From positions 96,001 to 160,000 of the IMG/VR virus record IMGVR_UViG_3300023283_000076: a stretch of 64,000 nt of DNA; one strand, 5' to 3'. This DNA comes from a virus. Taxonomy: Duplodnaviria; Caudoviricetes. Of this stretch, positions 1 through 43,514 are shown piece by piece. A model generated the notes under the pieces. The model made no database searches and was not told where the DNA came from. It saw only the letters and a program-made list of their open reading frames with translations. The position numbers and the translations under genes were made by a program. Each line of letters opens with the position of its first letter. The stretch's first letter is position 1.

Positions 1-22
1 TTCACTAATCGGAGAAACTTAC

Positions 23-301
23 ATGTCTGTCGAAATTGTTAACGAACGTTTCATGGTTTGTGTTGATTGCGCTATGTTTATTGCCAACGATGATCTTAGT
101 GGGCTCGATTACCATTTTCTCTCCGATGAATCTGAACAGCGTGAAATCGCTATCCGCAACGGTGTTCAATATCAAAACGATCAAGATAATCATATTGTTA
201 TGGGAAACTCTGATGATGATATTGAATTTTCCAAAAGCCCTTGCAATTGTTGTGGCGATCATTTACATGGATATCGTTATCATGCAGTTTTACTTAAATA
301 A
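23..301 (+). CDS. Early hypothetical protein, Cys-rich (possible Zn-binding)
   Basis: ORF with GGAG RBS; CVDC and PCNCC motifs. Confidence 0.75.
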   Translation: MSVEIVNERFMVCVDCAMFIANDDLSGLDYHFLSDESEQREIAIRNGVQYQNDQDNHIVMGNSDDDIEFSKSPCNCCGDHLHGYRYHAVLLK

Positions 302-318
302 GAAACATTCCTACATAT

Positions 319-456
319 AAATGAAAATCATTTTCATTTGGCAATGAGAATCATTTTCAATATCAAAAATGATAGCCATTCTCATTTGACAATAAAAACC
401 ATTCTCATTTGACAATAAAAACCATTCTCATTTGACAATAAAAACCATTCTCATTT
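319..456. repeat. Six tandem 21-bp Fur-box-like elements at about 23-bp period
   Basis: Boxes at 319, 342, 367, 390, 413, 436; first is a perfect 10-1-10 palindrome AAATGAAAAT-C-ATTTTCATTT; last three are identical CAATAAAAACCATTCTCATTT. Confidence 0.8.
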
Positions 457-648
457 GACCTTATCTCGATTCAACCCTAGATGGTATCATATAACACCTG
501 TAAATACAAAGATTTTTTTTTATCCTATTTTGGTACCTTTATCATATGCTGATACCTTTGTCAATACCCTAAAGAAAATATAATCAAAATCTATCAATCC
601 ATCAGAGTTCATGCACAAATCGGATTTACAATTATTTTCAAAAATCGG

Positions 649-677
649 TTGACGGATTGAGCATGTTGCTGTATGAT
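649..677 (+). promoter_or_regulatory. Sigma70 early promoter
   Basis: TTGACG-N17-TATGAT, followed by leader ACATTCACTGATA and an RBS. Confidence 0.85.
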
Positions 678-710
678 CGGACTCACATTCACTGATAAAG
701 GTAAATTGTT

Positions 711-1019
711 ATGCTAAAGATTGAACAGGAAATGATTAACGCCATTCAAAACAAGCGCAATTGGAGGTTCGGTAATACTTCGGTCGAATACTTGCCCGAG
801 ATTGTTACACCTATGCGGGCACGTATTGAAATGGCAAAAGTTTATCTTTACAGTAACTGTATTGCCACTTATTCTTATCATGATAATACAGCTACTATCG
901 TTCCCAGCACGCTTGTAGAATGGCCTACTGTTACAACCTTTTCTCGCCTTCGTGCTCTTGGACTTGATCCTAAATCGGAACTTAAGAGAATTGCAAATAA
1001 CATACAAGATGCAGCATGA
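711..1019 (+). CDS. Early hypothetical protein
   Basis: ORF behind promoter and AAGG RBS. Confidence 0.75.
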   Translation: MLKIEQEMINAIQNKRNWRFGNTSVEYLPEIVTPMRARIEMAKVYLYSNCIATYSYHDNTATIVPSTLVEWPTVTTFSRLRALGLDPKSELKRIANNIQDAA

Positions 1020-1174
1020 AAAACAATTACCGCAAGTTAACCAAGAAACAATGGTATGACCTTGGCGGCTTCGCCAATCCATCATTGTTTCGTCGTGACC
1101 GTAGCAGGGGCTGGCAATACTATCAAGATATGGACCACCCTGCAAGTAATCATAACTATAGTGAATAAAGAATC

Positions 1175-1197
1175 GGGGCTTCGGCCCCCTTTCTTTT
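1175..1197 (+). terminator. Rho-independent terminator
   Basis: GGGGC-TTCG-GCCCC followed by T-rich tail. Confidence 0.85.
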
Positions 1198-1274
1198 ATC
1201 CTATTCTAGAACCTTTACCATACAATCAAAACAGTGTCAACCGATAAACGAAATAATTTATTTTTAAATAAGTA

Positions 1275-1302
1275 TTGACTCCTCCAAAAATACCAGTATA
1301 AT
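1275..1302 (+). promoter_or_regulatory. Sigma70 early promoter
   Basis: TTGACT-N16-TATAAT. Confidence 0.8.
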
Positions 1303-1333
1303 TGTTTACATCATTTCAACAAGGGAAATAGCT

Positions 1334-1636
1334 ATGGAAAATGTAAAGTTTGCTGGCTTTGATTGTACCGTTGAATTTGCCACGTACTCGAATGGACGTA
1401 CCGCTATTCAGCTTCGTGATGCAAACGATGGCCAGCCAATTGCCACCGCAACAGTCAACCTTCCCGATGAACCGATGGCTGAGGATGAGGTTGCTATCAA
1501 GAACTATAGCGAAAACTCTGGCATGTTAGATATTTTAATAGACACTGGAGTGATTGCCAGCCCGCATCGTGAAATCCCTAGCGGCTTCGTCACCATACCA
1601 GTCTGCGCCCTTCTGGTCAATCCAAATCAATCCTAG
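1334..1636 (+). CDS. Early conserved phage hypothetical protein
   Basis: ORF with own promoter and terminator; NGRTAIQL...ATATVNL...IKNYSEN pattern. Confidence 0.8.
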   Translation: MENVKFAGFDCTVEFATYSNGRTAIQLRDANDGQPIATATVNLPDEPMAEDEVAIKNYSENSGMLDILIDTGVIASPHREIPSGFVTIPVCALLVNPNQS

Positions 1637-1723
1637 TCAGTGAATGGTCTAGGTGGGCACGGGAAACCGTGCCCTTTTTTATCCTATTCTAAAACCTTTA
1701 TCATATCTTCATTCTAATGTCAA
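1629..1723 (+). repeat. 95-bp direct repeat, copy 1 (copy 2 at 2064-2158)
   Basis: 93/95 identical; contains terminator GGGCACGG-GAAA-CCGTGCCC-T6 and the intergenic module. Confidence 0.95.
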
Positions 1724-1746
1724 GAAAAATAATTTAAAATTTATTC

Positions 1747-1774
1747 TTGACACTCTCAAAAATATCTGTATAAT
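1747..1774 (+). promoter_or_regulatory. Sigma70 early promoter
   Basis: TTGACA-N16-TATAAT plus ACATTCACTGATA leader. Confidence 0.85.
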
Positions 1775-1806
1775 AGAATGTACATTCACTGATAGGAATA
1801 ACATAC

Positions 1807-2043
1807 ATGAACACTCTCAAGAACATTTCATTAGATCGAGATACTATTTTAATGGAACACGGATATGATCCGAATGATCCTACCTTGCAGGTGCATGTTA
1901 GTGTATCTGAAATTGAACCTAACCCTGATGGCAATGAAGATTATCTCATCGATGGTTCTAGTGTCACTACATCATCAGAACTTATCGACGGCCGTCAAAA
2001 TGATGTTGATCTGAATATCGAAATTTTCCGAGAACCGCATTAA
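1807..2043 (+). CDS. Early acidic hypothetical protein
   Basis: ORF flanked by the 95-bp direct repeats; AGGA RBS. Confidence 0.75.
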   Translation: MNTLKNISLDRDTILMEHGYDPNDPTLQVHVSVSEIEPNPDGNEDYLIDGSSVTTSSELIDGRQNDVDLNIEIFREPH

Positions 2044-2063
2044 GTATCGGCTCCAATCAGTTT

Positions 2064-2158
2064 AATCCTAGTCAATAAATGGTCTAGGTGGGCACGGGAA
2101 ACCGTGCCCTTTTTTATCCTATTCTAAAACCTTTATCATATCTTCATTCTAATGTCAA
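2064..2158 (+). repeat. 95-bp direct repeat, copy 2
   Basis: Near-identical to 1629-1723. Confidence 0.95.
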
Positions 2159-2202
2159 CCCTTCAACCCAAAAAATTTCTTACAAATAATTATTAAAAAC
2201 CC

Positions 2203-2230
2203 TTGCACTTTCCCGAAAAATCTTTATAAT
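2203..2230 (+). promoter_or_regulatory. Sigma70 early promoter
   Basis: TTGCAC-N16-TATAAT. Confidence 0.75.
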
Positions 2231-2264
2231 AGATTCTAACATCAACTGAAAAAGGATAGTAGGT

Positions 2265-2999
2265 ATGCCAAGTCAAGAAATCGTCGAAATTTTCCGCAAT
2301 CATGGCGTGAACATCACCGCTGATGATTCCAGTATGAAACTGGTCAAAGCGTTGAAAGAAGAAAATCCCGCAACACTATGGCCCATGCTTGAAGAGTTTA
2401 CTAACAACAAGCCTATCGGCCTCGATGGCTGTAACGAAACAATGCATCACTATACATTGCAATATGCCCTCGTAAGAGCATTTGAACAAAATCGTGATAG
2501 CATCACTCAAGACGATTTAGATGCTGCTCGTGAAGATGCTGCCAAATTAGCAGAATCCCTTTCTCATGGTTCGTCTACTCGTGATGATGAAATCGTTCAA
2601 AATGATTCCGAAAATGAAGATAATCAGAGTAACGTTGCTAAGCCTAAGAAAACCAGAAAACGAAATCGTAATCTGTATCCCATGATCCTTTCGTTAGTCG
2701 AAGATAATATGAAAGCAACGCCTAACGAAATTCTCGAAATGGTCAAAGAACGTGATCCCGCTGCAAACGATTCAACCGTCAAGGTATACTACAGCAAGGC
2801 ACGTAATGAACTCAACTTGCCGAAAATCGGAAAACGTGGCCGCAAGGGTTCAGGTATCTATGATAAGATCAAAGCATTGATTGAAGCTAACCCGAACGTT
2901 GAACGTGCTGAAATGATCGAACGCATCGTTAACGAACTTGGAGCCAAAGTCGGTACCGCTCAAGCCTACTACAGCAAGGCAATGAAAGAATTGAGCTAA
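2265..2999 (+). CDS. Early protein with two C-terminal helical (HTH-like) repeats
   Basis: Repeats ending STVKVYYSKARNEL and GTAQAYYSKAMKEL, each preceded by a basic linker. Confidence 0.7.
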   Translation: MPSQEIVEIFRNHGVNITADDSSMKLVKALKEENPATLWPMLEEFTNNKPIGLDGCNETMHHYTLQYALVRAFEQNRDSITQDDLDAAREDAAKLAESLSHGSSTRDDEIVQNDSENEDNQSNVAKPKKTRKRNRNLYPMILSLVEDNMKATPNEILEMVKERDPAANDSTVKVYYSKARNELNLPKIGKRGRKGSGIYDKIKALIEANPNVERAEMIERIVNELGAKVGTAQAYYSKAMKELS

Positions 3000-3021
3000 C
3001 CCCTAGCTTAACATCAAAAAC

Positions 3022-3052
3022 TATTCAGGGACCATAGAACGGTCCCTGAATA
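3022..3052 (+). terminator. Hairpin terminator
   Basis: TATTCAGGGACC-N7-GGTCCCTGAATA. Confidence 0.7.
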
Positions 3053-3184
3053 TTATCCTATCCTAATGCCTTTAACTCATCATCATCATCCATTTGTCAA
3101 TACCCTAAGCAAAATATAATCAAAACATATCAATCTATCCAAATCTATAGACAAATCGGATTTACAATTATTTTCAGAAATCGG

Positions 3185-3213
3185 TTGACGAATTGACCAT
3201 GTTGCTGTATGAT
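3185..3213 (+). promoter_or_regulatory. Sigma70 early promoter
   Basis: TTGACG-N17-TATGAT; surrounding ~140 bp homologous to 559-705. Confidence 0.85.
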
Positions 3214-3245
3214 CGTACTTACATTCACTGATAGGAGAAACACAA

Positions 3246-3515
3246 ATGGAAGATATTCTCAGGGAAGAGCGATTCAACAAAATTATGGAAGCAGGAAACA
3301 ATGGCCATTTCTTTTCTGTTCGCTTCATCAAGCGGTCTAACGGTGCCGAACGCTTCATGACCTGTCGCCTCGGAGTTACAAAACATCTCAAGGGTGGTAA
3401 CAAAGCATACGACGACAAAGTTCACAAACTTGTCACCGTCTACGATGTTCAAGCCAAAGGATACCGTTGCATTCCACTGGAAAGCATCTTTGAACTCAAC
3501 GGCGAACCTATCTGA
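3246..3515 (+). CDS. Early small beta-rich (SH3-like) phage protein
   Basis: FFSVRFIKRSNG...VYDVQAKGYRCI pattern; GGAG RBS. Confidence 0.7.
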   Translation: MEDILREERFNKIMEAGNNGHFFSVRFIKRSNGAERFMTCRLGVTKHLKGGNKAYDDKVHKLVTVYDVQAKGYRCIPLESIFELNGEPI

Positions 3516-3692
3516 TAGGTTCAATCGTATCATCAAGAGGATGCGACTTGTTCGCATCCTTTTTTATCCTATCCTAATGCCTTTAACTCATCATCATTTA
3601 TTTGTCAATACCCTAAAGAAAATATAATCAAAACCTATCAATCAATAAGAATCTATAGACAAATCGGATTTACAATTATTTTCAGATATCAG

Positions 3693-3720
3693 TTGACAAT
3701 CCTGAAAATATCTGTATAAT
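3693..3720 (+). promoter_or_regulatory. Sigma70 early promoter
   Basis: TTGACA-N16-TATAAT plus ACATTCACTGATA leader. Confidence 0.85.
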
Positions 3721-3752
3721 CCTTAATTACATTCACTGATAAGGGTAACACG

Positions 3753-4640
3753 ATGAACGGAAATCAAAAGATTCACAAGATTGTAGCGCAAGCTTTCATC
3801 GACCAGATCGAAGCAGGTATGGCGGATGGTAAATGGACCGCTCCATGGGCGAAGCTTGCCACAGACTTTCCGACCAATGCCGTGACAAAGAAGGCATACC
3901 GTGGTATCAATATCTTTTCATTGTGGGGCGCTGGATTCTCATCCCCGTACTGGGCTACCTTTAAGCAATGGAAGTCAGTCGATGCCACGATCAAGAAAGG
4001 ATCAAAAGGATCATTGATCGTTTTCTGGAAAATTATCGATTCCAAGAATCAATTCGATAGTGACGGCAAGCCAAAAAAGTTTCCCTTCCTACAGAAATCG
4101 AAAGTTTTCAATGCCGATCAAGTTGATGGCTGGACCGCTCCAACACTGGAAGATCGTCCTAAGCTTTCGACAAATGAAATCCATGCCGAATGCGATGCAA
4201 TGATCGCAGCGACGGGTGCTGAAATCCAGCATGGCGGAAATATGGCCTGTTATGTTCCAAGTCATGACCGTATACTTCTTCCTGAATTCAACGCCTTTCG
4301 GGATGCCGATTCATACTATCAGACCGCATTCCATGAACTGGCACATTGGACAGGTCATGCTTCACGACTGGACCGCAACCTTTCCACCCGCTTCGGAAGC
4401 AATGCATATGCATTGGAAGAACTGTTAGCAGAACTTACAGCAGCCATTGTGGGCGTCCGTATGGGCATCGATGCTACTACCCGCATGGACCATGCAAAGT
4501 ATGTAAAGAGTTGGCTTACGGCGCTTCGTGAACAGCCAGAGTGCCTCATGCATATCGCCAGCAAGGCGAGCAAGGTAGCGGATTACCTGATCGAGGGCGA
4601 AGCAGGTGAAACCAAACAAGATCAAGCGGAAGCCGCTTGA
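3753..4640 (+). CDS. ardC: ArdC-family antirestriction / ssDNA-binding protein with zincin-like domain
   Basis: PW...PTNAVT...YRGIN...WATFKQW...VFNADQ N-terminal domain; FHELAHWTGH...RL.R...YALEELLAEL zincin motif. Confidence 0.92.
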   Translation: MNGNQKIHKIVAQAFIDQIEAGMADGKWTAPWAKLATDFPTNAVTKKAYRGINIFSLWGAGFSSPYWATFKQWKSVDATIKKGSKGSLIVFWKIIDSKNQFDSDGKPKKFPFLQKSKVFNADQVDGWTAPTLEDRPKLSTNEIHAECDAMIAATGAEIQHGGNMACYVPSHDRILLPEFNAFRDADSYYQTAFHELAHWTGHASRLDRNLSTRFGSNAYALEELLAELTAAIVGVRMGIDATTRMDHAKYVKSWLTALREQPECLMHIASKASKVADYLIEGEAGETKQDQAEAA

Positions 4641-4660
4641 TCTATCATTGATAGACTAGA

Positions 4661-4692
4661 CGAGGATGCGAATCATTCGCATCCTCTTTTTT
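4661..4692 (+). terminator. Rho-independent terminator
   Basis: GAGGATGCGAA-TCA-TTCGCATCCTC plus T run; related hairpin at about 3538-3565. Confidence 0.85.
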
Positions 4693-5358
4693 ATCCTACT
4701 CTAGAGCCTTTACCATATAACATATCGCTTGTCAATACCCTAATCCAAAAAACTGAAAACAAGTTTGGGAAATTTTGATTACCATATTTTTGAGATCTTG
4801 TCAAGGGGGTACGGGCTGTGCTAAGCAATTGAACAAAAATTAACCACTTTTTTATATAGAAAGTTTTTGAGAATTTTTGATTAGTTCTACAGGGGAATAT
4901 TAGACCCTTTTTTATTTTTTGCTATCATTTTTTATCATTTGCTATTATTTTTCACGATTTATAATAATTTGTGATTGTTTTTCATAAGTTGTGACTGTTT
5001 TTCATGAATATTGATAAACACAATTTGATTGTATAAACACAATACAATACTTTGGCATTGATTCTGCTAAACAGAATACAAGTTTCGGTTTTGTATATAT
5101 GGAAGAGGGGGGTCTTTTATATAAGGGTTTATATTATTGAAAAAATTTTCTCAGAATTTTTTTTATTACTCAGAGATTTTATATTCTGTTAGAGTTTATA
5201 AACTTTAATAAAATATTGTTTTTTAAAAAAGTATGATTTAAAACATCCGATGAATTGAAAGTTAAGTGAAATCTATGATAATGACCACAAGAATCAAGAA
5301 CTGATTCAAATGAACTAAATATTTGAAAGATCATTTCAATAGTCGTTGGAATTAACAT

Positions 5359-5727
5359 TTATTTTTTCCAGACACATTTTTCGTTATACCACTTTGCTAC
5401 TACGGTAGTTACTATAATTTTTGAATTATTTTTTACTTTACAGATAAAGAAACATGGTCCATTATTCACTACAACGAATTTACCGTAGCGTGTAAAGTTT
5501 CTATTCAGCCAGAACGGTGATTGTTCCCATTTGTCACAAATTCTTCCTTCTTTAACTTTTTCTGCAATGATTGAATTCCACATATATTTGGAAGATACTT
5601 TACTACTGTAGAAATATAATCTAAAGCGTTCCAAGAATCTATTATGTGCGTGATGTGTAACACGAATATCTTTTATATTAGCGTTTCGCACACAGTTTTT
5701 AAGAGAGGTGGTGTTTATATGTGTCAT
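5359..5727 (-). CDS. Hypothetical protein
   Basis: ORF; VTHHAHNRFLERF motif. Confidence 0.65.
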   Translation of the reverse strand: MTHINTTSLKNCVRNANIKDIRVTHHAHNRFLERFRLYFYSSKVSSKYMWNSIIAEKVKEGRICDKWEQSPFWLNRNFTRYGKFVVVNNGPCFFICKVKNNSKIIVTTVVAKWYNEKCVWKK

Positions 5728-5881
5728 TGTTATTTTTCGTTATTTTAAAAATTATTAGTTATATAATTTACGATTGGTATTATACCAATTGTTGAAGGGA
5801 TTGTCAAGCTTAAATGTTATTGATTGTAATTTGGTACTTATTGTGATATACTTATTTTAGAAATTTGTTAGGAAAAGATTA

Positions 5882-6274
5882 ATGTATAAGATGGATAACA
5901 ATTTACCTATAATTGGAGATAATTTTTCGGATAATGATTTTGGTAGAATATGTAAAGAATTATATTTATTTTTAGATGAAGAAAGTCGTGCTGTAGCGGA
6001 TGATATCGGAACTGATATTGAAAAATTTAATGTATTTTTGGCACAAATTCATCATTCTTATGGTCGTTTTTTGAGGAATGAATTTCATTTATGGAATTCG
6101 GACAATCCGATTGTATTGTGGAGTAGGGAAAAATACGGAATTGATCATGCTGATGATATTTCCAGTATTATTATTGCTGGGATAATATTTAATAAAGATC
6201 ATGAATTCAGAGATTTGGTAATTGATACATTAGTTAAGCGGTTTCATAAGCATTGGAGGATGTATGGAAACTAA
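5882..6274 (+). CDS. Hypothetical protein
   Basis: ORF behind a promoter-like AT-rich region. Confidence 0.65.
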   Translation: MYKMDNNLPIIGDNFSDNDFGRICKELYLFLDEESRAVADDIGTDIEKFNVFLAQIHHSYGRFLRNEFHLWNSDNPIVLWSREKYGIDHADDISSIIIAGIIFNKDHEFRDLVIDTLVKRFHKHWRMYGN

Positions 6275-6428
6275 AGACTTGAAGACTATAGGCGCTCTTC
6301 AGAAGGCGGTTCAATTAGCTCGTATTGCTAGTGATTGGAATTTTGATGAAGTTGAGATAGACGAAGAGATGGTTAGTATTCATGAACTAATTGAAGAATT
6401 TGAAATGGTTATTAAAGAATTTGATTGA
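6264..6428 (+). CDS. Small acidic hypothetical protein (54 aa, not in ORF track)
   Basis: GGAGG RBS; METKDLKTIGALQKAVQLARIASDWNFDEVEIDEEMVSIHELIEEFEMVIKEFD. Confidence 0.6.
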   Translation: METKDLKTIGALQKAVQLARIASDWNFDEVEIDEEMVSIHELIEEFEMVIKEFD

Positions 6429-6495
6429 AAAGCGGTAGTGAAATCAAAATAGTTATTGGAATAAATAATATTGTCAGAGTGTTCCCGTAAGATAT

Positions 6496-7716
6496 ATGAA
6501 TATATTAAAGATATTAAAAGAGATTGATGGTTTCACTTATAATGAACTATTTAATATTTTAAATGAGAATTACAAGATTGCGTTAGACAAATTTTCATCT
6601 GAAGCAAATACTGATACTATCAAGGATTATTTTTCTAAGTTTAAGGAACTGGGGAAGAAAAATTTGATTAACAAGGACATATCTTATTGGATTCCCAAGG
6701 GTTGGGAAAAATTTAAAGCGGCGGTAGATGATGCAGAAGGATATGGTAAGTCTAGGACTGAGCATAAGCGTAGTAAAAATGCGGGTAAATCTATTACTAT
6801 ACATGAAGATAATAGATGGTTGATTGTTATTCCGTTAGATAAAGATGCAAGTTGTTTTCATGGTCGAAATACTGATTGGTGTACTGCCAAGCCCACTGAA
6901 TTGCATTTTATCAAATATTTTAATGAAAACAATATAATACTAATTTATTTCATAGAAAAATCTTCTAATGAAAAATACGCAATCTCATTTAATGAAGATA
7001 ATAATCAGGTAGAATTGTTTGATAAGAATGACAAGAGCATTAGTAGAGAAGATTTTAAATCAGGCACTGGACGGGATCCTTTAGATATTGTTAATTTGGT
7101 TGAGGATGAGTATTTAGAAAAAATAAAATCTTGGAAACAGAATCAGAAACAAGAGCAAAAAGAAGCTAAAGCGGATATTATTAAATACCGAGATGGTGAT
7201 TATTTTAAAAAGGATGCTCCCAAGAATAAAATTGAACACTATTTGAGAAATTCTCGTGATGTTGATAACTTGTCCGCTTATATACGAACTTTTGGTTCAG
7301 ATAATCCAGAAGAAGACATATTGATGATGGATTCTGGACTATCTACACAAATACTTGGTGATAAGGCACCTGAAAAGGTAAAAAGGGCGGCTATTAATTT
7401 ATCTCCCCTGAATATTATGTATTTGGATAATCCATCTGAAGAGCTTCAATTGATGGGTATAAAAAGTTTATCAGGTATTCGTTCTGTTTTTAGTGATCCC
7501 AAAAAAGAAATTTCTGATAAAGTGGCGTTGGCTGCGATAGATAGATTGCGAGGAGCGTATAATGGAGAATATCTCAAAGATATATTTACTCCTTATCGAA
7601 ATTATTCTGAGGATGTTCAGATTGCAGCAGCGAAGAAATATCCAGAAAAAGCATTAAAGTATATCATAAATCCTACGGATAAAGTTAAAAGGATGCTACA
7701 ACATAAAACACAATAA
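6496..7716 (+). CDS. Probable late/virion-associated protein
   Basis: ATAAATA upstream; N-terminus MNILKILKE; GRNTDWCTA motif. Confidence 0.7.
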   Translation: MNILKILKEIDGFTYNELFNILNENYKIALDKFSSEANTDTIKDYFSKFKELGKKNLINKDISYWIPKGWEKFKAAVDDAEGYGKSRTEHKRSKNAGKSITIHEDNRWLIVIPLDKDASCFHGRNTDWCTAKPTELHFIKYFNENNIILIYFIEKSSNEKYAISFNEDNNQVELFDKNDKSISREDFKSGTGRDPLDIVNLVEDEYLEKIKSWKQNQKQEQKEAKADIIKYRDGDYFKKDAPKNKIEHYLRNSRDVDNLSAYIRTFGSDNPEEDILMMDSGLSTQILGDKAPEKVKRAAINLSPLNIMYLDNPSEELQLMGIKSLSGIRSVFSDPKKEISDKVALAAIDRLRGAYNGEYLKDIFTPYRNYSEDVQIAAAKKYPEKALKYIINPTDKVKRMLQHKTQ

Positions 7717-7836
7717 AAATATTATCTTTTTAAACTAAATAAACATTTTTTAATACAGAAAAAGGTTGATAGGTAACAGATGTCCTGATTTATGGTATTG
7801 TGACGACTATAGCTTTTTTGATTGTCGACCACGATA

Positions 7837-7844
7837 TATAAATA
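7837..7844 (+). promoter_or_regulatory. T4-type late promoter
   Basis: TATAAATA 32 bp before the 7876 ORF. Confidence 0.75.
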
Positions 7845-7875
7845 AGTTTAACATATGTAAGGCATTTTATTAACG

Positions 7876-8334
7876 ATGAAAGTTGGTATTATATTAGAAA
7901 GAGTTAACGCTGAACTAGGCATATTAACCGAAATGCCTGAAAAGGATTTAAAGGTTGTTATAAATGCTCTTGAAAAAGAATTCAAGAAATATGGGTTACG
8001 TATACATTTAACAAAGCATTTTATTAATTATGCATTACATTCGGCTGCTGAAGAGCGTAAAACGGTATCTGCTGCTGATTTATATAGAACCATAATGGAA
8101 TTTTTGAATAAGCATGGCACAAGGTTTGATGAATTTAGAAAGAGCAGAAAAAACTTCAAGATTGCTATAACCAACAAGAGAACTAATTTGACGATAAACT
8201 TAGTTATTGATTATAATAAGCCGCCTAGGGATTCGAATGTTCCATATGATGCGGCGTTACAGTCTATTATAAAGAAAGATGATTATCGTGCAGATAACAA
8301 TCCGGTAGATTTTTGGTCTAAAGTAAATGTTTAA
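7876..8334 (+). CDS. Probable late/virion-associated protein
   Basis: Late promoter; first gene of a four-gene unit. Confidence 0.7.
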   Translation: MKVGIILERVNAELGILTEMPEKDLKVVINALEKEFKKYGLRIHLTKHFINYALHSAAEERKTVSAADLYRTIMEFLNKHGTRFDEFRKSRKNFKIAITNKRTNLTINLVIDYNKPPRDSNVPYDAALQSIIKKDDYRADNNPVDFWSKVNV

Positions 8335-42643: not shown

Positions 42644-43354
42644 CTATTTATGATTTACTATTGAAAAATAACTAGAAAACGGTCTTTTTTCACGAGGGTA
42701 TTTTTTATTTTTTTTACGTTCATATTCTATAACATTTATACCATTTTTTTGGGTATATTTCCACAAGGTATAGTTGAAAGATAGTTGATCTCTTTTACTT
42801 GGGAGTTTCATATAATCTTTATACCATTCAGAAAATAGATTATAACAATTTACGCTTTTTCTGGATATAACCAACACACCTGTTTCATTTAATCCAGCAT
42901 TTCTGGGATAATTAATACTTTTAAGTATATTAATATGTTTATTTACAATCATCGGGGTTTCTTTTTTTAATTTTATTATTTCTCTTGCTTCATCATATAT
43001 ACAATTCCTATCAGGGTGTTGGCCAATCATTAGATCATGTTCTTTTGGATCAAAATTAAATTCTTTTATGAATTTATTTAAATCATCTGTAATTTCCATA
43101 TTACCATCTATACATATACATATATCATAAGTTTCAGGTATATATTTTGAATACTGCATTACTATAGAGTTGGCCTTCCTTTTAGGACATTTTATAAATG
43201 TATCGTCCACATGAATTGGTTTAATGTTCCATGTAGCCGATTCAATATCGCTATCGGTAACACATATGTGATCCCAGCCGGGGCTTATTGTTTTTGGTTC
43301 AATTATGTGATCATAATTTCCAGTTATATAGGTTAATACGCATCTATTGTTCAT
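42644..43354 (-). CDS. DUF616/MUCI70-like glycosyltransferase
   Basis: TYITGNYD, ICIDGN, HPDRNCIYDEA, RDQLSFNY. Confidence 0.8.
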   Translation of the reverse strand: MNNRCVLTYITGNYDHIIEPKTISPGWDHICVTDSDIESATWNIKPIHVDDTFIKCPKRKANSIVMQYSKYIPETYDICICIDGNMEITDDLNKFIKEFNFDPKEHDLMIGQHPDRNCIYDEAREIIKLKKETPMIVNKHINILKSINYPRNAGLNETGVLVISRKSVNCYNLFSEWYKDYMKLPSKRDQLSFNYTLWKYTQKNGINVIEYERKKNKKYPREKRPFSSYFSIVNHK

Positions 43355-43514
43355 TAAATTTTTTTTGTTTTTTATTTATTTCCTCTATTTCTTCTAAACA
43401 TAGACCACAACATGTGGCTGCACCTGTTTGTATTATGACGCTTAAAATATCTCCATGGTGAAGGTGCTGTTTTATTTCATCCTCTGTTATTGCGTTGCAA
43501 ACACATATATACAT
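43344..43514 (-). CDS. bfd: Bacterioferritin-associated ferredoxin-like [2Fe-2S] protein (56 aa, absent from ORF track)
   Basis: MYICVCNAITEDEIK...GAATCCGLC; starts 2 nt after the epimerase stop and overlaps the next gene. Confidence 0.85.
   Translation of the reverse strand: MYICVCNAITEDEIKQHLHHGDILSVIIQTGAATCCGLCLEEIEEINKKQKKFNEQ

Follow-up and report, generated by a model that had tools for sequence, protein, structure and literature searches.

Six tandem Fur-box-like sites behind an early gene of an uncultured XacN1-like jumbo phage as a candidate binding array for host Fur

Six tandem 21-bp dyads located behind a small early gene of an uncultured jumbo phage offer strong sequence evidence for Fur-type operators, and, on balance, the array that they form would be a binding array for host Fur, acting as a sink, as a roadblock, or both. 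The DNA analyzed (the window, 64,000 nucleotides) corresponds to bases 96001-160000 of the 270,653-bp IMG/VR record IMGVR_UViG_3300023283_000076, which has a GC content of 34.5% and is estimated to be ~79% complete. The phage can be placed as an uncultured XacN1-like jumbo phage because its major capsid protein shares 62-65% identity with its counterparts in the Xanthomonas phages XacN1 and Xoo-sp13 and the Stenotrophomonas phages CM1 and RAS14, versus 47% or less for the next group. The array, at 96.3 kb of the record, is one of seven Fur-like loci, all of them within 0.8-96.5 kb, in a promoter-rich early region composed of bacterial-type promoters and small single-gene cassettes, and all the strong sites are situated in gene-free DNA between called ORFs.

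Direct reading of the letters bears out the six 21-bp units that a sequence-only reading of this DNA had placed at window 319-456; they start at 319, 342, 367, 390, 413, and 436, with a start-to-start spacing of 23, 25, 23, 23, and 23 bp. Unit 1 (319-339, AAATGAAAATCATTTTCATTT) is indeed the perfect 10-1-10 palindrome that had been described, its core TGAAAAT-C-ATTTTCA representing the 7-1-7 form, and shows 0 mismatches to the degenerate consensus AATGANAATNATTNTCATT. Units 2 (342-362, CAATGAGAATCATTTTCAATA) and 3 (367-387, AAATGATAGCCATTCTCATTT) had rightly been called near-palindromes, with an arm symmetry of 7/10 in each, and unit 2 is alike in 19/21 positions to box 1 of the P0003-type locus in contig L185, described below. 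Units 4-6 (390-410, 413-433, and 436-456) are three identical copies of CAATAAAAACCATTCTCATTT in a 23-bp period, as had been claimed, and the right half that they were said to keep is a full right arm, accompanied by 6/9 of the left arm. The dyad symmetry (7-1-7 or 9-1-9) that characterizes a Fur box is present in the array units. Tandem Repeats Finder delimits a 23-bp unit in 3.7 copies, 100% identical, at 376-459, and this repeat begins with the right half of unit 3. The hexamer TTGACA directly follows each of units 3-5, and TTGACC follows unit 6; a promoter inside units 3-6 was rejected, as no -10 hexamer is found 16-18 bp past TTGACA/TTGACC. A possible relic of a seventh unit (296-316, AAATAAGAAACATTCCTACAT), which agrees with the phage consensus in 15/21 positions, overlaps the preceding gene at its stop codon; by sequence alone it is at chance level, and it can only be recognized via the paralogous arrays, which have a good box at that position, their first box being AAATGAGAA with the stop codon TGA inside.

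Regarding the identity of the motif, the study by Blanvillain et al. 2007 (PMC1790865) gives the X. campestris Fur box, derived from nine Fur-repressed receptor genes, as AATGAgAATcATTctCATT, and this 19-bp consensus is included exactly, base for base, in the phage's own consensus AAATGAGAATCATTCTCATTT, the dyad being the same in both. The units, which the sequence-only reading had regarded as Fur-box-like, match AATGAGAATCATTCTCATT in 17, 17, 16, 16, 16, and 16 of 19 positions, this consensus being that of X. campestris; the Fur-regulated Xcc sites listed in PMC1790865 score 15-17/19, and the phage units fall at that level. Scoring with a weight matrix, the check proposed together with the original claim, renders 19.1-26.2 bits (25.9, 19.8, and 26.2 for units 1, 2, and 3, and 19.1 for each of units 4-6), with a matrix built from twelve phage sites. 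As identical recent duplicates, units 4-6 do not constitute independent evidence. Outside Xanthomonas, the Fur site TTAAATGAGAATCATTTTCATTTAT of A. baumannii (PMC3055841) is almost identical to units 1 and 2, and the 9-1-9 and 7-1-7 Fur operators of Shewanella, Bacillus, and Acinetobacter (PMC3055841) show an equivalent dyad.

The motif is also far more frequent in the phage genome than composition would predict. Sites matching the Xanthomonas consensus in at least 16/19 positions amount to 20 in the 270-kb record (3 at 18, 6 at 17, and 11 at 16), versus 0.2 per Markov-3 simulated genome, a null that allows for the ease with which AT-rich palindromes arise at 34.5% GC. With the degenerate consensus AATGANAATNATTNTCATT, 7 genome sites are found with up to one mismatch and 20 with up to two, while the reversed pattern, used as a control, gives 0 sites with up to two mismatches in the phage genome; at up to one mismatch, each of five complete bacterial genomes (0.9-5.9 Mb) contains 1-5 sites, versus the 7 in the 270-kb phage. 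The phage-built matrix detects 25 sites of at least 14 bits versus 2.0 expected from Markov-3 simulations, a count that is partly circular since 12 of the 25 are training sites. The exact 21-mer of the phage motif occurs in at least 120 bacterial contigs of many phyla, where a rough calculation from base composition and collection size gives a chance expectation of ~0.5 to 10 contigs, and a scan of ten genes flanking these bacterial 21-mers included one TonB-dependent receptor, one FeoB, and one FbpA-like binding protein. The perfect palindrome was present in only 5 of the 301 genomes of the class survey.

Fur is near-universal in bacteria, and Fur boxes are textbook bacterial operators. The Fur family (PF01475) has no match in the 270-kb record (~79% complete), and, since no Fur gene was found there, the array would be bound by the Fur of the host. 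Xanthomonas and Stenotrophomonas are the hosts of the nearest cultured relatives, and that host clade uses the GAGAAT form of the box, as does the phage; this agreement of the box variant with the clade that the relatives infect is notable. The Fur-like clusters themselves are specific to this lineage because they are absent from the closest cultured relatives XacN1, Xoo-sp13, and RAS14. The near-relative contigs retrieved through the capsid protein (L158-L168) represent other genome parts and contain only single weak motif matches, and window 1-3000 has no DNA match among INPHARED phages, near and distant. In IMG/VR, an exact-pattern search returned no match to the array, searches with the 92-aa protein encoded next to it and with the Kyano_Gp96 neighbor returned no relatives, and a search with the ArdA-like neighbor returned distant loci only, at 35-45% identity.

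The gene in front of the array (P0001, window 23-301, + strand) is an early gene for a Cys/His-rich, acidic protein of 92 aa (pI 4.46; PHROG 8253/3034, with no function there), and the array begins 18 bp past its stop codon. The protein was considered as the binder of the array and is disfavored, because it is acidic and has neither a Pfam match nor informative Atlas neighbors; a DNA-binding signature is likewise lacking. No sigma70-type promoter overlaps 319-456, as had been claimed, and overlap with or close proximity to -35/-10 elements, usual in Fur operators, is not found at this array, nor is a regulated gene for iron uptake, storage, or iron sparing. The placement of the array about 190 bp upstream of the nearest promoter holds for the + strand, with 193 bp to the sigma70-type promoter TTGACG-17-TATGAT at 649-677, which drives the following early cassette, with gene 711-1019 of the Kyano_Gp96 family; it does not fully describe the array, which is in the 3' flank of a gene and lies downstream of an antisense promoter-like element. 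The Fur reading is weighed against by this want of promoter overlap, by the absence of an adjoining iron gene, the neighbors being the 92-aa protein and the Kyano_Gp96-family protein, by the absence of the clusters from XacN1-type relatives, and by a site spacing of 23-25 bp, unlike that of the E. coli Fur clusters compared below.

The antisense element, TTGACA-N17-TAAAGG, is found on the - strand at 564-536, or to 513 when its CTAG..TAGGATAAAAA box is included, and points leftwards into the array, which would be located at ~+70 to +210 of any transcript started there. It occupies the position where other cassettes have a GC-rich terminator hairpin, and the array is probably transcribed, because it stands between the stop codon and that terminator position. 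The 7-kb paralogous module is arranged likewise, with a TAAAGG element at genome 6874-6902 pointing into the array at 6981-7047. The genome has 27 perfect copies of TTGACA-N17/18-TAAAGG, all within 2.7-100.7 kb and each followed by the conserved CTAG..TAGGATAAAAA box; those in the window, all on the - strand, are at 564-536, 1240-1212, 1723-1695, 2158-2130, 3608-3580, and 4735-4707. The element is probably a real promoter class, because it stands directly upstream of co-oriented genes at 20.8, 45.8, 52.5, and 77.8 kb, and these elements may represent a second promoter class with a non-canonical -10. In the left arm they are mostly on the + strand and in the right arm mostly on the - strand, so that they are mostly aimed at ~50 kb, antisense to the early cassettes. 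Both paralogs of the 92-aa gene also carry, upstream of their promoter, an inverted repeat of ~15 nt per arm (genome 7400-7470 and 95870-95945), which is most evident in the 7-kb copy (TAATGTATCTCATTC ... GAATGAGATATATTA) and more irregular at 95.9 kb; its arms resemble shortened Fur half-sites.

The 92-aa gene and its boxes form a module that is found twice in the genome, the paralog P0002 encoding a protein 84% identical, and a third form, P0003 (75% identical), in the independent Logan contig L185, has Fur-like boxes at the same place. The module is also present in related metagenomic contigs, with the boxes directly 3' of the stop codon in every case, and in the P0002 and P0003 forms the stop codon is inside the first box. 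Boxes are absent behind distant homologues of the 92-aa protein (30-42% identity), including those of the enterobacterial phages SSBI34 and FBKp34, and a metagenome scan for the family gave one homologue at 42% identity, also devoid of boxes; the link between gene and array is therefore confined to the close lineage.

The remaining Fur-like loci comprise a single site at genome 855, three tandem units on the other strand at 6981-7047, which belong to the paralog of the gene-plus-array module, and two mirror pairs. In the pair at 20.9 and 77.7 kb, two boxes occupy the leader that separates a sigma70-type promoter from a CxxCxGxG zinc-finger gene, whereas at 45.9 and 52.3 kb boxes stand on both sides of a TTGACA-17-TACGAT promoter, and the -35 (TTATCA) of a weaker promoter is inside a box. 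At these four sister loci, ordinary Fur-type repression of early transcripts would be the likelier role, because the boxes overlap a weak -35 or are placed in leaders downstream of strong promoters. When the mirror paralogs are aligned (45.9 vs 52.3 kb and 20.9 vs 77.7 kb), the boxes are no better conserved than the flanks, and, with ~85% identity throughout, the comparison does not discriminate as a test of selection.

The early region is a large mirror of three inverted paralogous block pairs (7.0/96.3, 20.9/77.7, and 45.9/52.3 kb), ~85% identical, around 49-51 kb, and at its center both the cumulative GC skew and the GC content (0.288) reach their minimum, which makes 49-51 kb a possible origin or center of divergent transcription. 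Terminator hairpins of the form GAGGATGCGAAT(G/C)ATTCGCATCCTC plus a T-run, at window 4660-4690 (genome 100664) and genome 2784 and 3877, have the ATGCGAATCATTCGCAT core in common with the Fur-like motif (16 bits, 15/19), and the leader boxes at 20.9, 45.9, and 77.7 kb likewise contain GCGAAT half-sites. Small His/Asp/Glu-rich ORFs (containing ENDSYSHERDENDNH) cross Fur-like boxes at 45.9 kb (L006:5971-6153, + strand) and at 52.3 kb (L006:12213-12362, - strand); they are probably reading-frame artefacts of the palindrome, since GAGAATGATTCTCAT reads ENDSH.

Among the alternatives, the one that survives best, although fairly unlikely, is that the protein bound by the units is encoded by the phage itself, as a regulator of early or middle transcription or as an initiator of replication acting on iterons, and has a site that resembles or mimics a Fur box. 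Iterons are tandem direct repeats with a length of 17-22 bp and a spacing of about two helical turns, a description that suits 21-bp dyads at 23-25 bp. The iterons of the lambda origin have an anatomy like that of 21-bp dyad-symmetric units at a 23-bp period. A binder of this type would fit the tie of the array to one phage gene family (two paralogs plus one diverged relative), the restriction of the clusters to a lineage apart from XacN1-type relatives, and the position of the strongest clusters (45.9 and 52.3 kb) on both sides of the GC-skew minimum and mirror center near 50 kb, a plausible origin region; its gene could be missing from a record that is ~79% complete. However, the motif is identical to the published Fur consensus and to sequences that precede bacterial iron-uptake genes, and the linked 92-aa protein is, as stated, acidic and without a DNA-binding signature. 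Neither is the repeat specific to one replicon, given its occurrence in the bacterial contigs mentioned above and in phage contigs with almost no genes in common with this one. An IMG/VR scan for two right half-sites 19-31 bp apart recovered three perfect boxes in an exact 30-bp period (L199), four boxes (L194), five boxes (L197), two boxes each (L190 and L223), and, in L206 (IMGVR_UViG_3300042399_001002, a 34-kb contig with a GC of 0.34), 16 sites of at least 14 bits within the 5.3 kb at 2793-8133, 9 of them in a 1.5-kb stretch without any ORF of at least 60 aa. Because the same motif recurs in such unrelated phages, a conserved host protein explains it better than a phage-specific binder. 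The iteron version, which the sequence-only reading had itself named as the competing outcome, comes out weakened, as no replication or initiator gene adjoins the array, the neighbors being small early proteins, and the cumulative GC skew has its extrema near 50, 110, and 212 kb, none of which coincides with the array at 96.3 kb. Iterons such as those of the lambda origin, P1, and R6K are likewise ~20-bp direct repeats with internal dyads; here, in contrast, no initiator gene adjoins, several dispersed loci exist, and the motif is common to bacterial chromosomes and unrelated phages.

In a second alternative, only one or two ancestral boxes behind the 92-aa gene would be functional, whichever protein binds them, and the six-unit array would be a minisatellite expanded by neutral slippage that adds no function, an explanation that is improbable for the array as a whole. 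The comparison of copy number in related phages that had been proposed with the Fur claim reveals 2, 3, 4, or 6 units between close strains, in otherwise near-identical contigs: six in this array and in L186, four in L179, three at genome 6981-7047, and two in L180, L181, L182, L184, and the more divergent L185. The core common to all versions is two boxes, and several assemblies (L182-L184) end inside the repeat; together with the 100% identity of units 4-6, these data are what slippage would produce. Units 1-3, however, are not copies of the 23-bp repeat and yet are independent 16-17/19 matches, and tandem arrays of the motif arose separately in unrelated phages. The differences in copy number between strains are compatible with selection for additional sites and with neutral slippage alike. 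L186, a sister contig of that same sample, shows no difference across the six units but lacks 28 bp right after the array (3430-3445 vs window 457-495; CCTTATCTCGATTCAACCCTAGATGGTATCAT to CCGTATCAT), from which it follows that the flank of the array is also unstable.

A role of the repeats as RNA elements, within the 3' UTR of the 92-aa mRNA or in the antisense TAAAGG transcript, acting through hairpins that the palindromes can form or through A-rich protein-binding repeats in the AAUAAAAAC spacers, is very improbable, since the predicted fold is weak (MFE -22.2 kcal/mol, z = -1.96) with a centroid that keeps the unit 1 hairpin only, Rfam gives no match, changes at box positions 7 and 15 are not compensatory at sister sites, and the motif also occupies untranscribed positions upstream of promoters, such as 855 and 45895.

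Returning to the binding of host Fur, the array would provide six tandem operators for the iron-bound repressor within an early-region network of ~20 sites in seven loci, and in iron-replete cells Fe-Fur dimers would occupy the units. A sink and a roadblock are the likeliest effects, because the array overlaps no promoter and was amplified from 2 to 3, 4, or 6 copies. As a roadblock, it would act locally and in an iron-dependent manner, separating the 92-aa gene from the antisense TAAAGG-type element that fires into the array. As a sink, the array and the other sites, multiplied by phage replication, would lower free Fur and thereby derepress iron uptake and mobilization in the host, and the iron released might serve a di-iron ribonucleotide reductase and a Bfd-like protein of the phage. 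The phage encodes NrdAB, an iron-dependent class Ia (di-iron) ribonucleotide reductase, and the Bfd that had been reported from the sequence was confirmed as a Bfd-like [2Fe-2S] domain (PF04324, 32.2 bits, cut-off 26) in a 56-aa ORF at window 43347-43514 on the - strand, inside a glycosylation operon and with no Fur-like box near it; both proteins provide a motive for iron supply, and no proof of it. A few thousand Fur molecules are reported per cell, and in Fur titration assays multicopy boxes derepress the Fur regulon. The argument for titration is one of rough numbers, in which ~20 sites in at least 100 genome copies approach this amount of Fur. The more ambitious proposition that the ~20 sites per copy act as a DNA decoy that titrates Fur, switches on the iron-starvation regulon, and feeds iron to phage enzymes is nevertheless to be regarded as doubtful.

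Compared with characterized systems, the array may be described, from its letters, as an operator of a known type whose setting and arrangement are new. In bacteria, Fur boxes are usually one or two and stand no more than ~300 bp upstream of iron-uptake genes, whereas the phage has six in tandem behind a gene. The Fur clusters of E. coli (iucA, fhuF, and fepA-fes, among others) likewise have multiple sites over 30-140 bp, along which Fur occupancy can extend; their sites overlap one another, with offsets of 3 or 6 bp, and 83% overlap sigma70 promoters (Chen et al. 2007, PMC2189734), in contrast to the discrete sites every 23-25 bp, without a promoter, in the phage array. Host Fur operators on phage DNA have a precedent in lambdoid coliphages, with a Fur box before the sitABCD cargo (PMC6969025). 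In these coliphages the operators are single and iron-related cargo joins the host regulon, whereas here ~20 sites are distributed in the early region, none of them beside an iron gene. A Fur box also reportedly precedes stx1, a cargo gene of temperate phages, and the same distinction applies to it; moreover, the carriers of sitABCD and stx1 are temperate, unlike the relatives of this jumbo phage, which are lytic. A full-text literature search found Fur boxes on phages only before cargo genes and nothing for jumbo or virulent phages, and in the literature searched no paper describes phage arrays as readers of iron status or as soaks for Fur.

If these sites are true Fur boxes, large phages would read the iron status of the host or manipulate it by soaking up its repressor, and this phage would equal an entire bacterial genome in its number of top-quality Fur boxes, partly in promoter-less arrays that vary between strains. 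Should the decoy proposition be true, the amplification from two to six units would be the trace of selection for titrating capacity, and the arrays in unrelated phages would point to a general phage strategy. The box variant, in turn, matching the host clade of the relatives, suggests that phage-borne operators could help to predict the hosts of uncultured phages.
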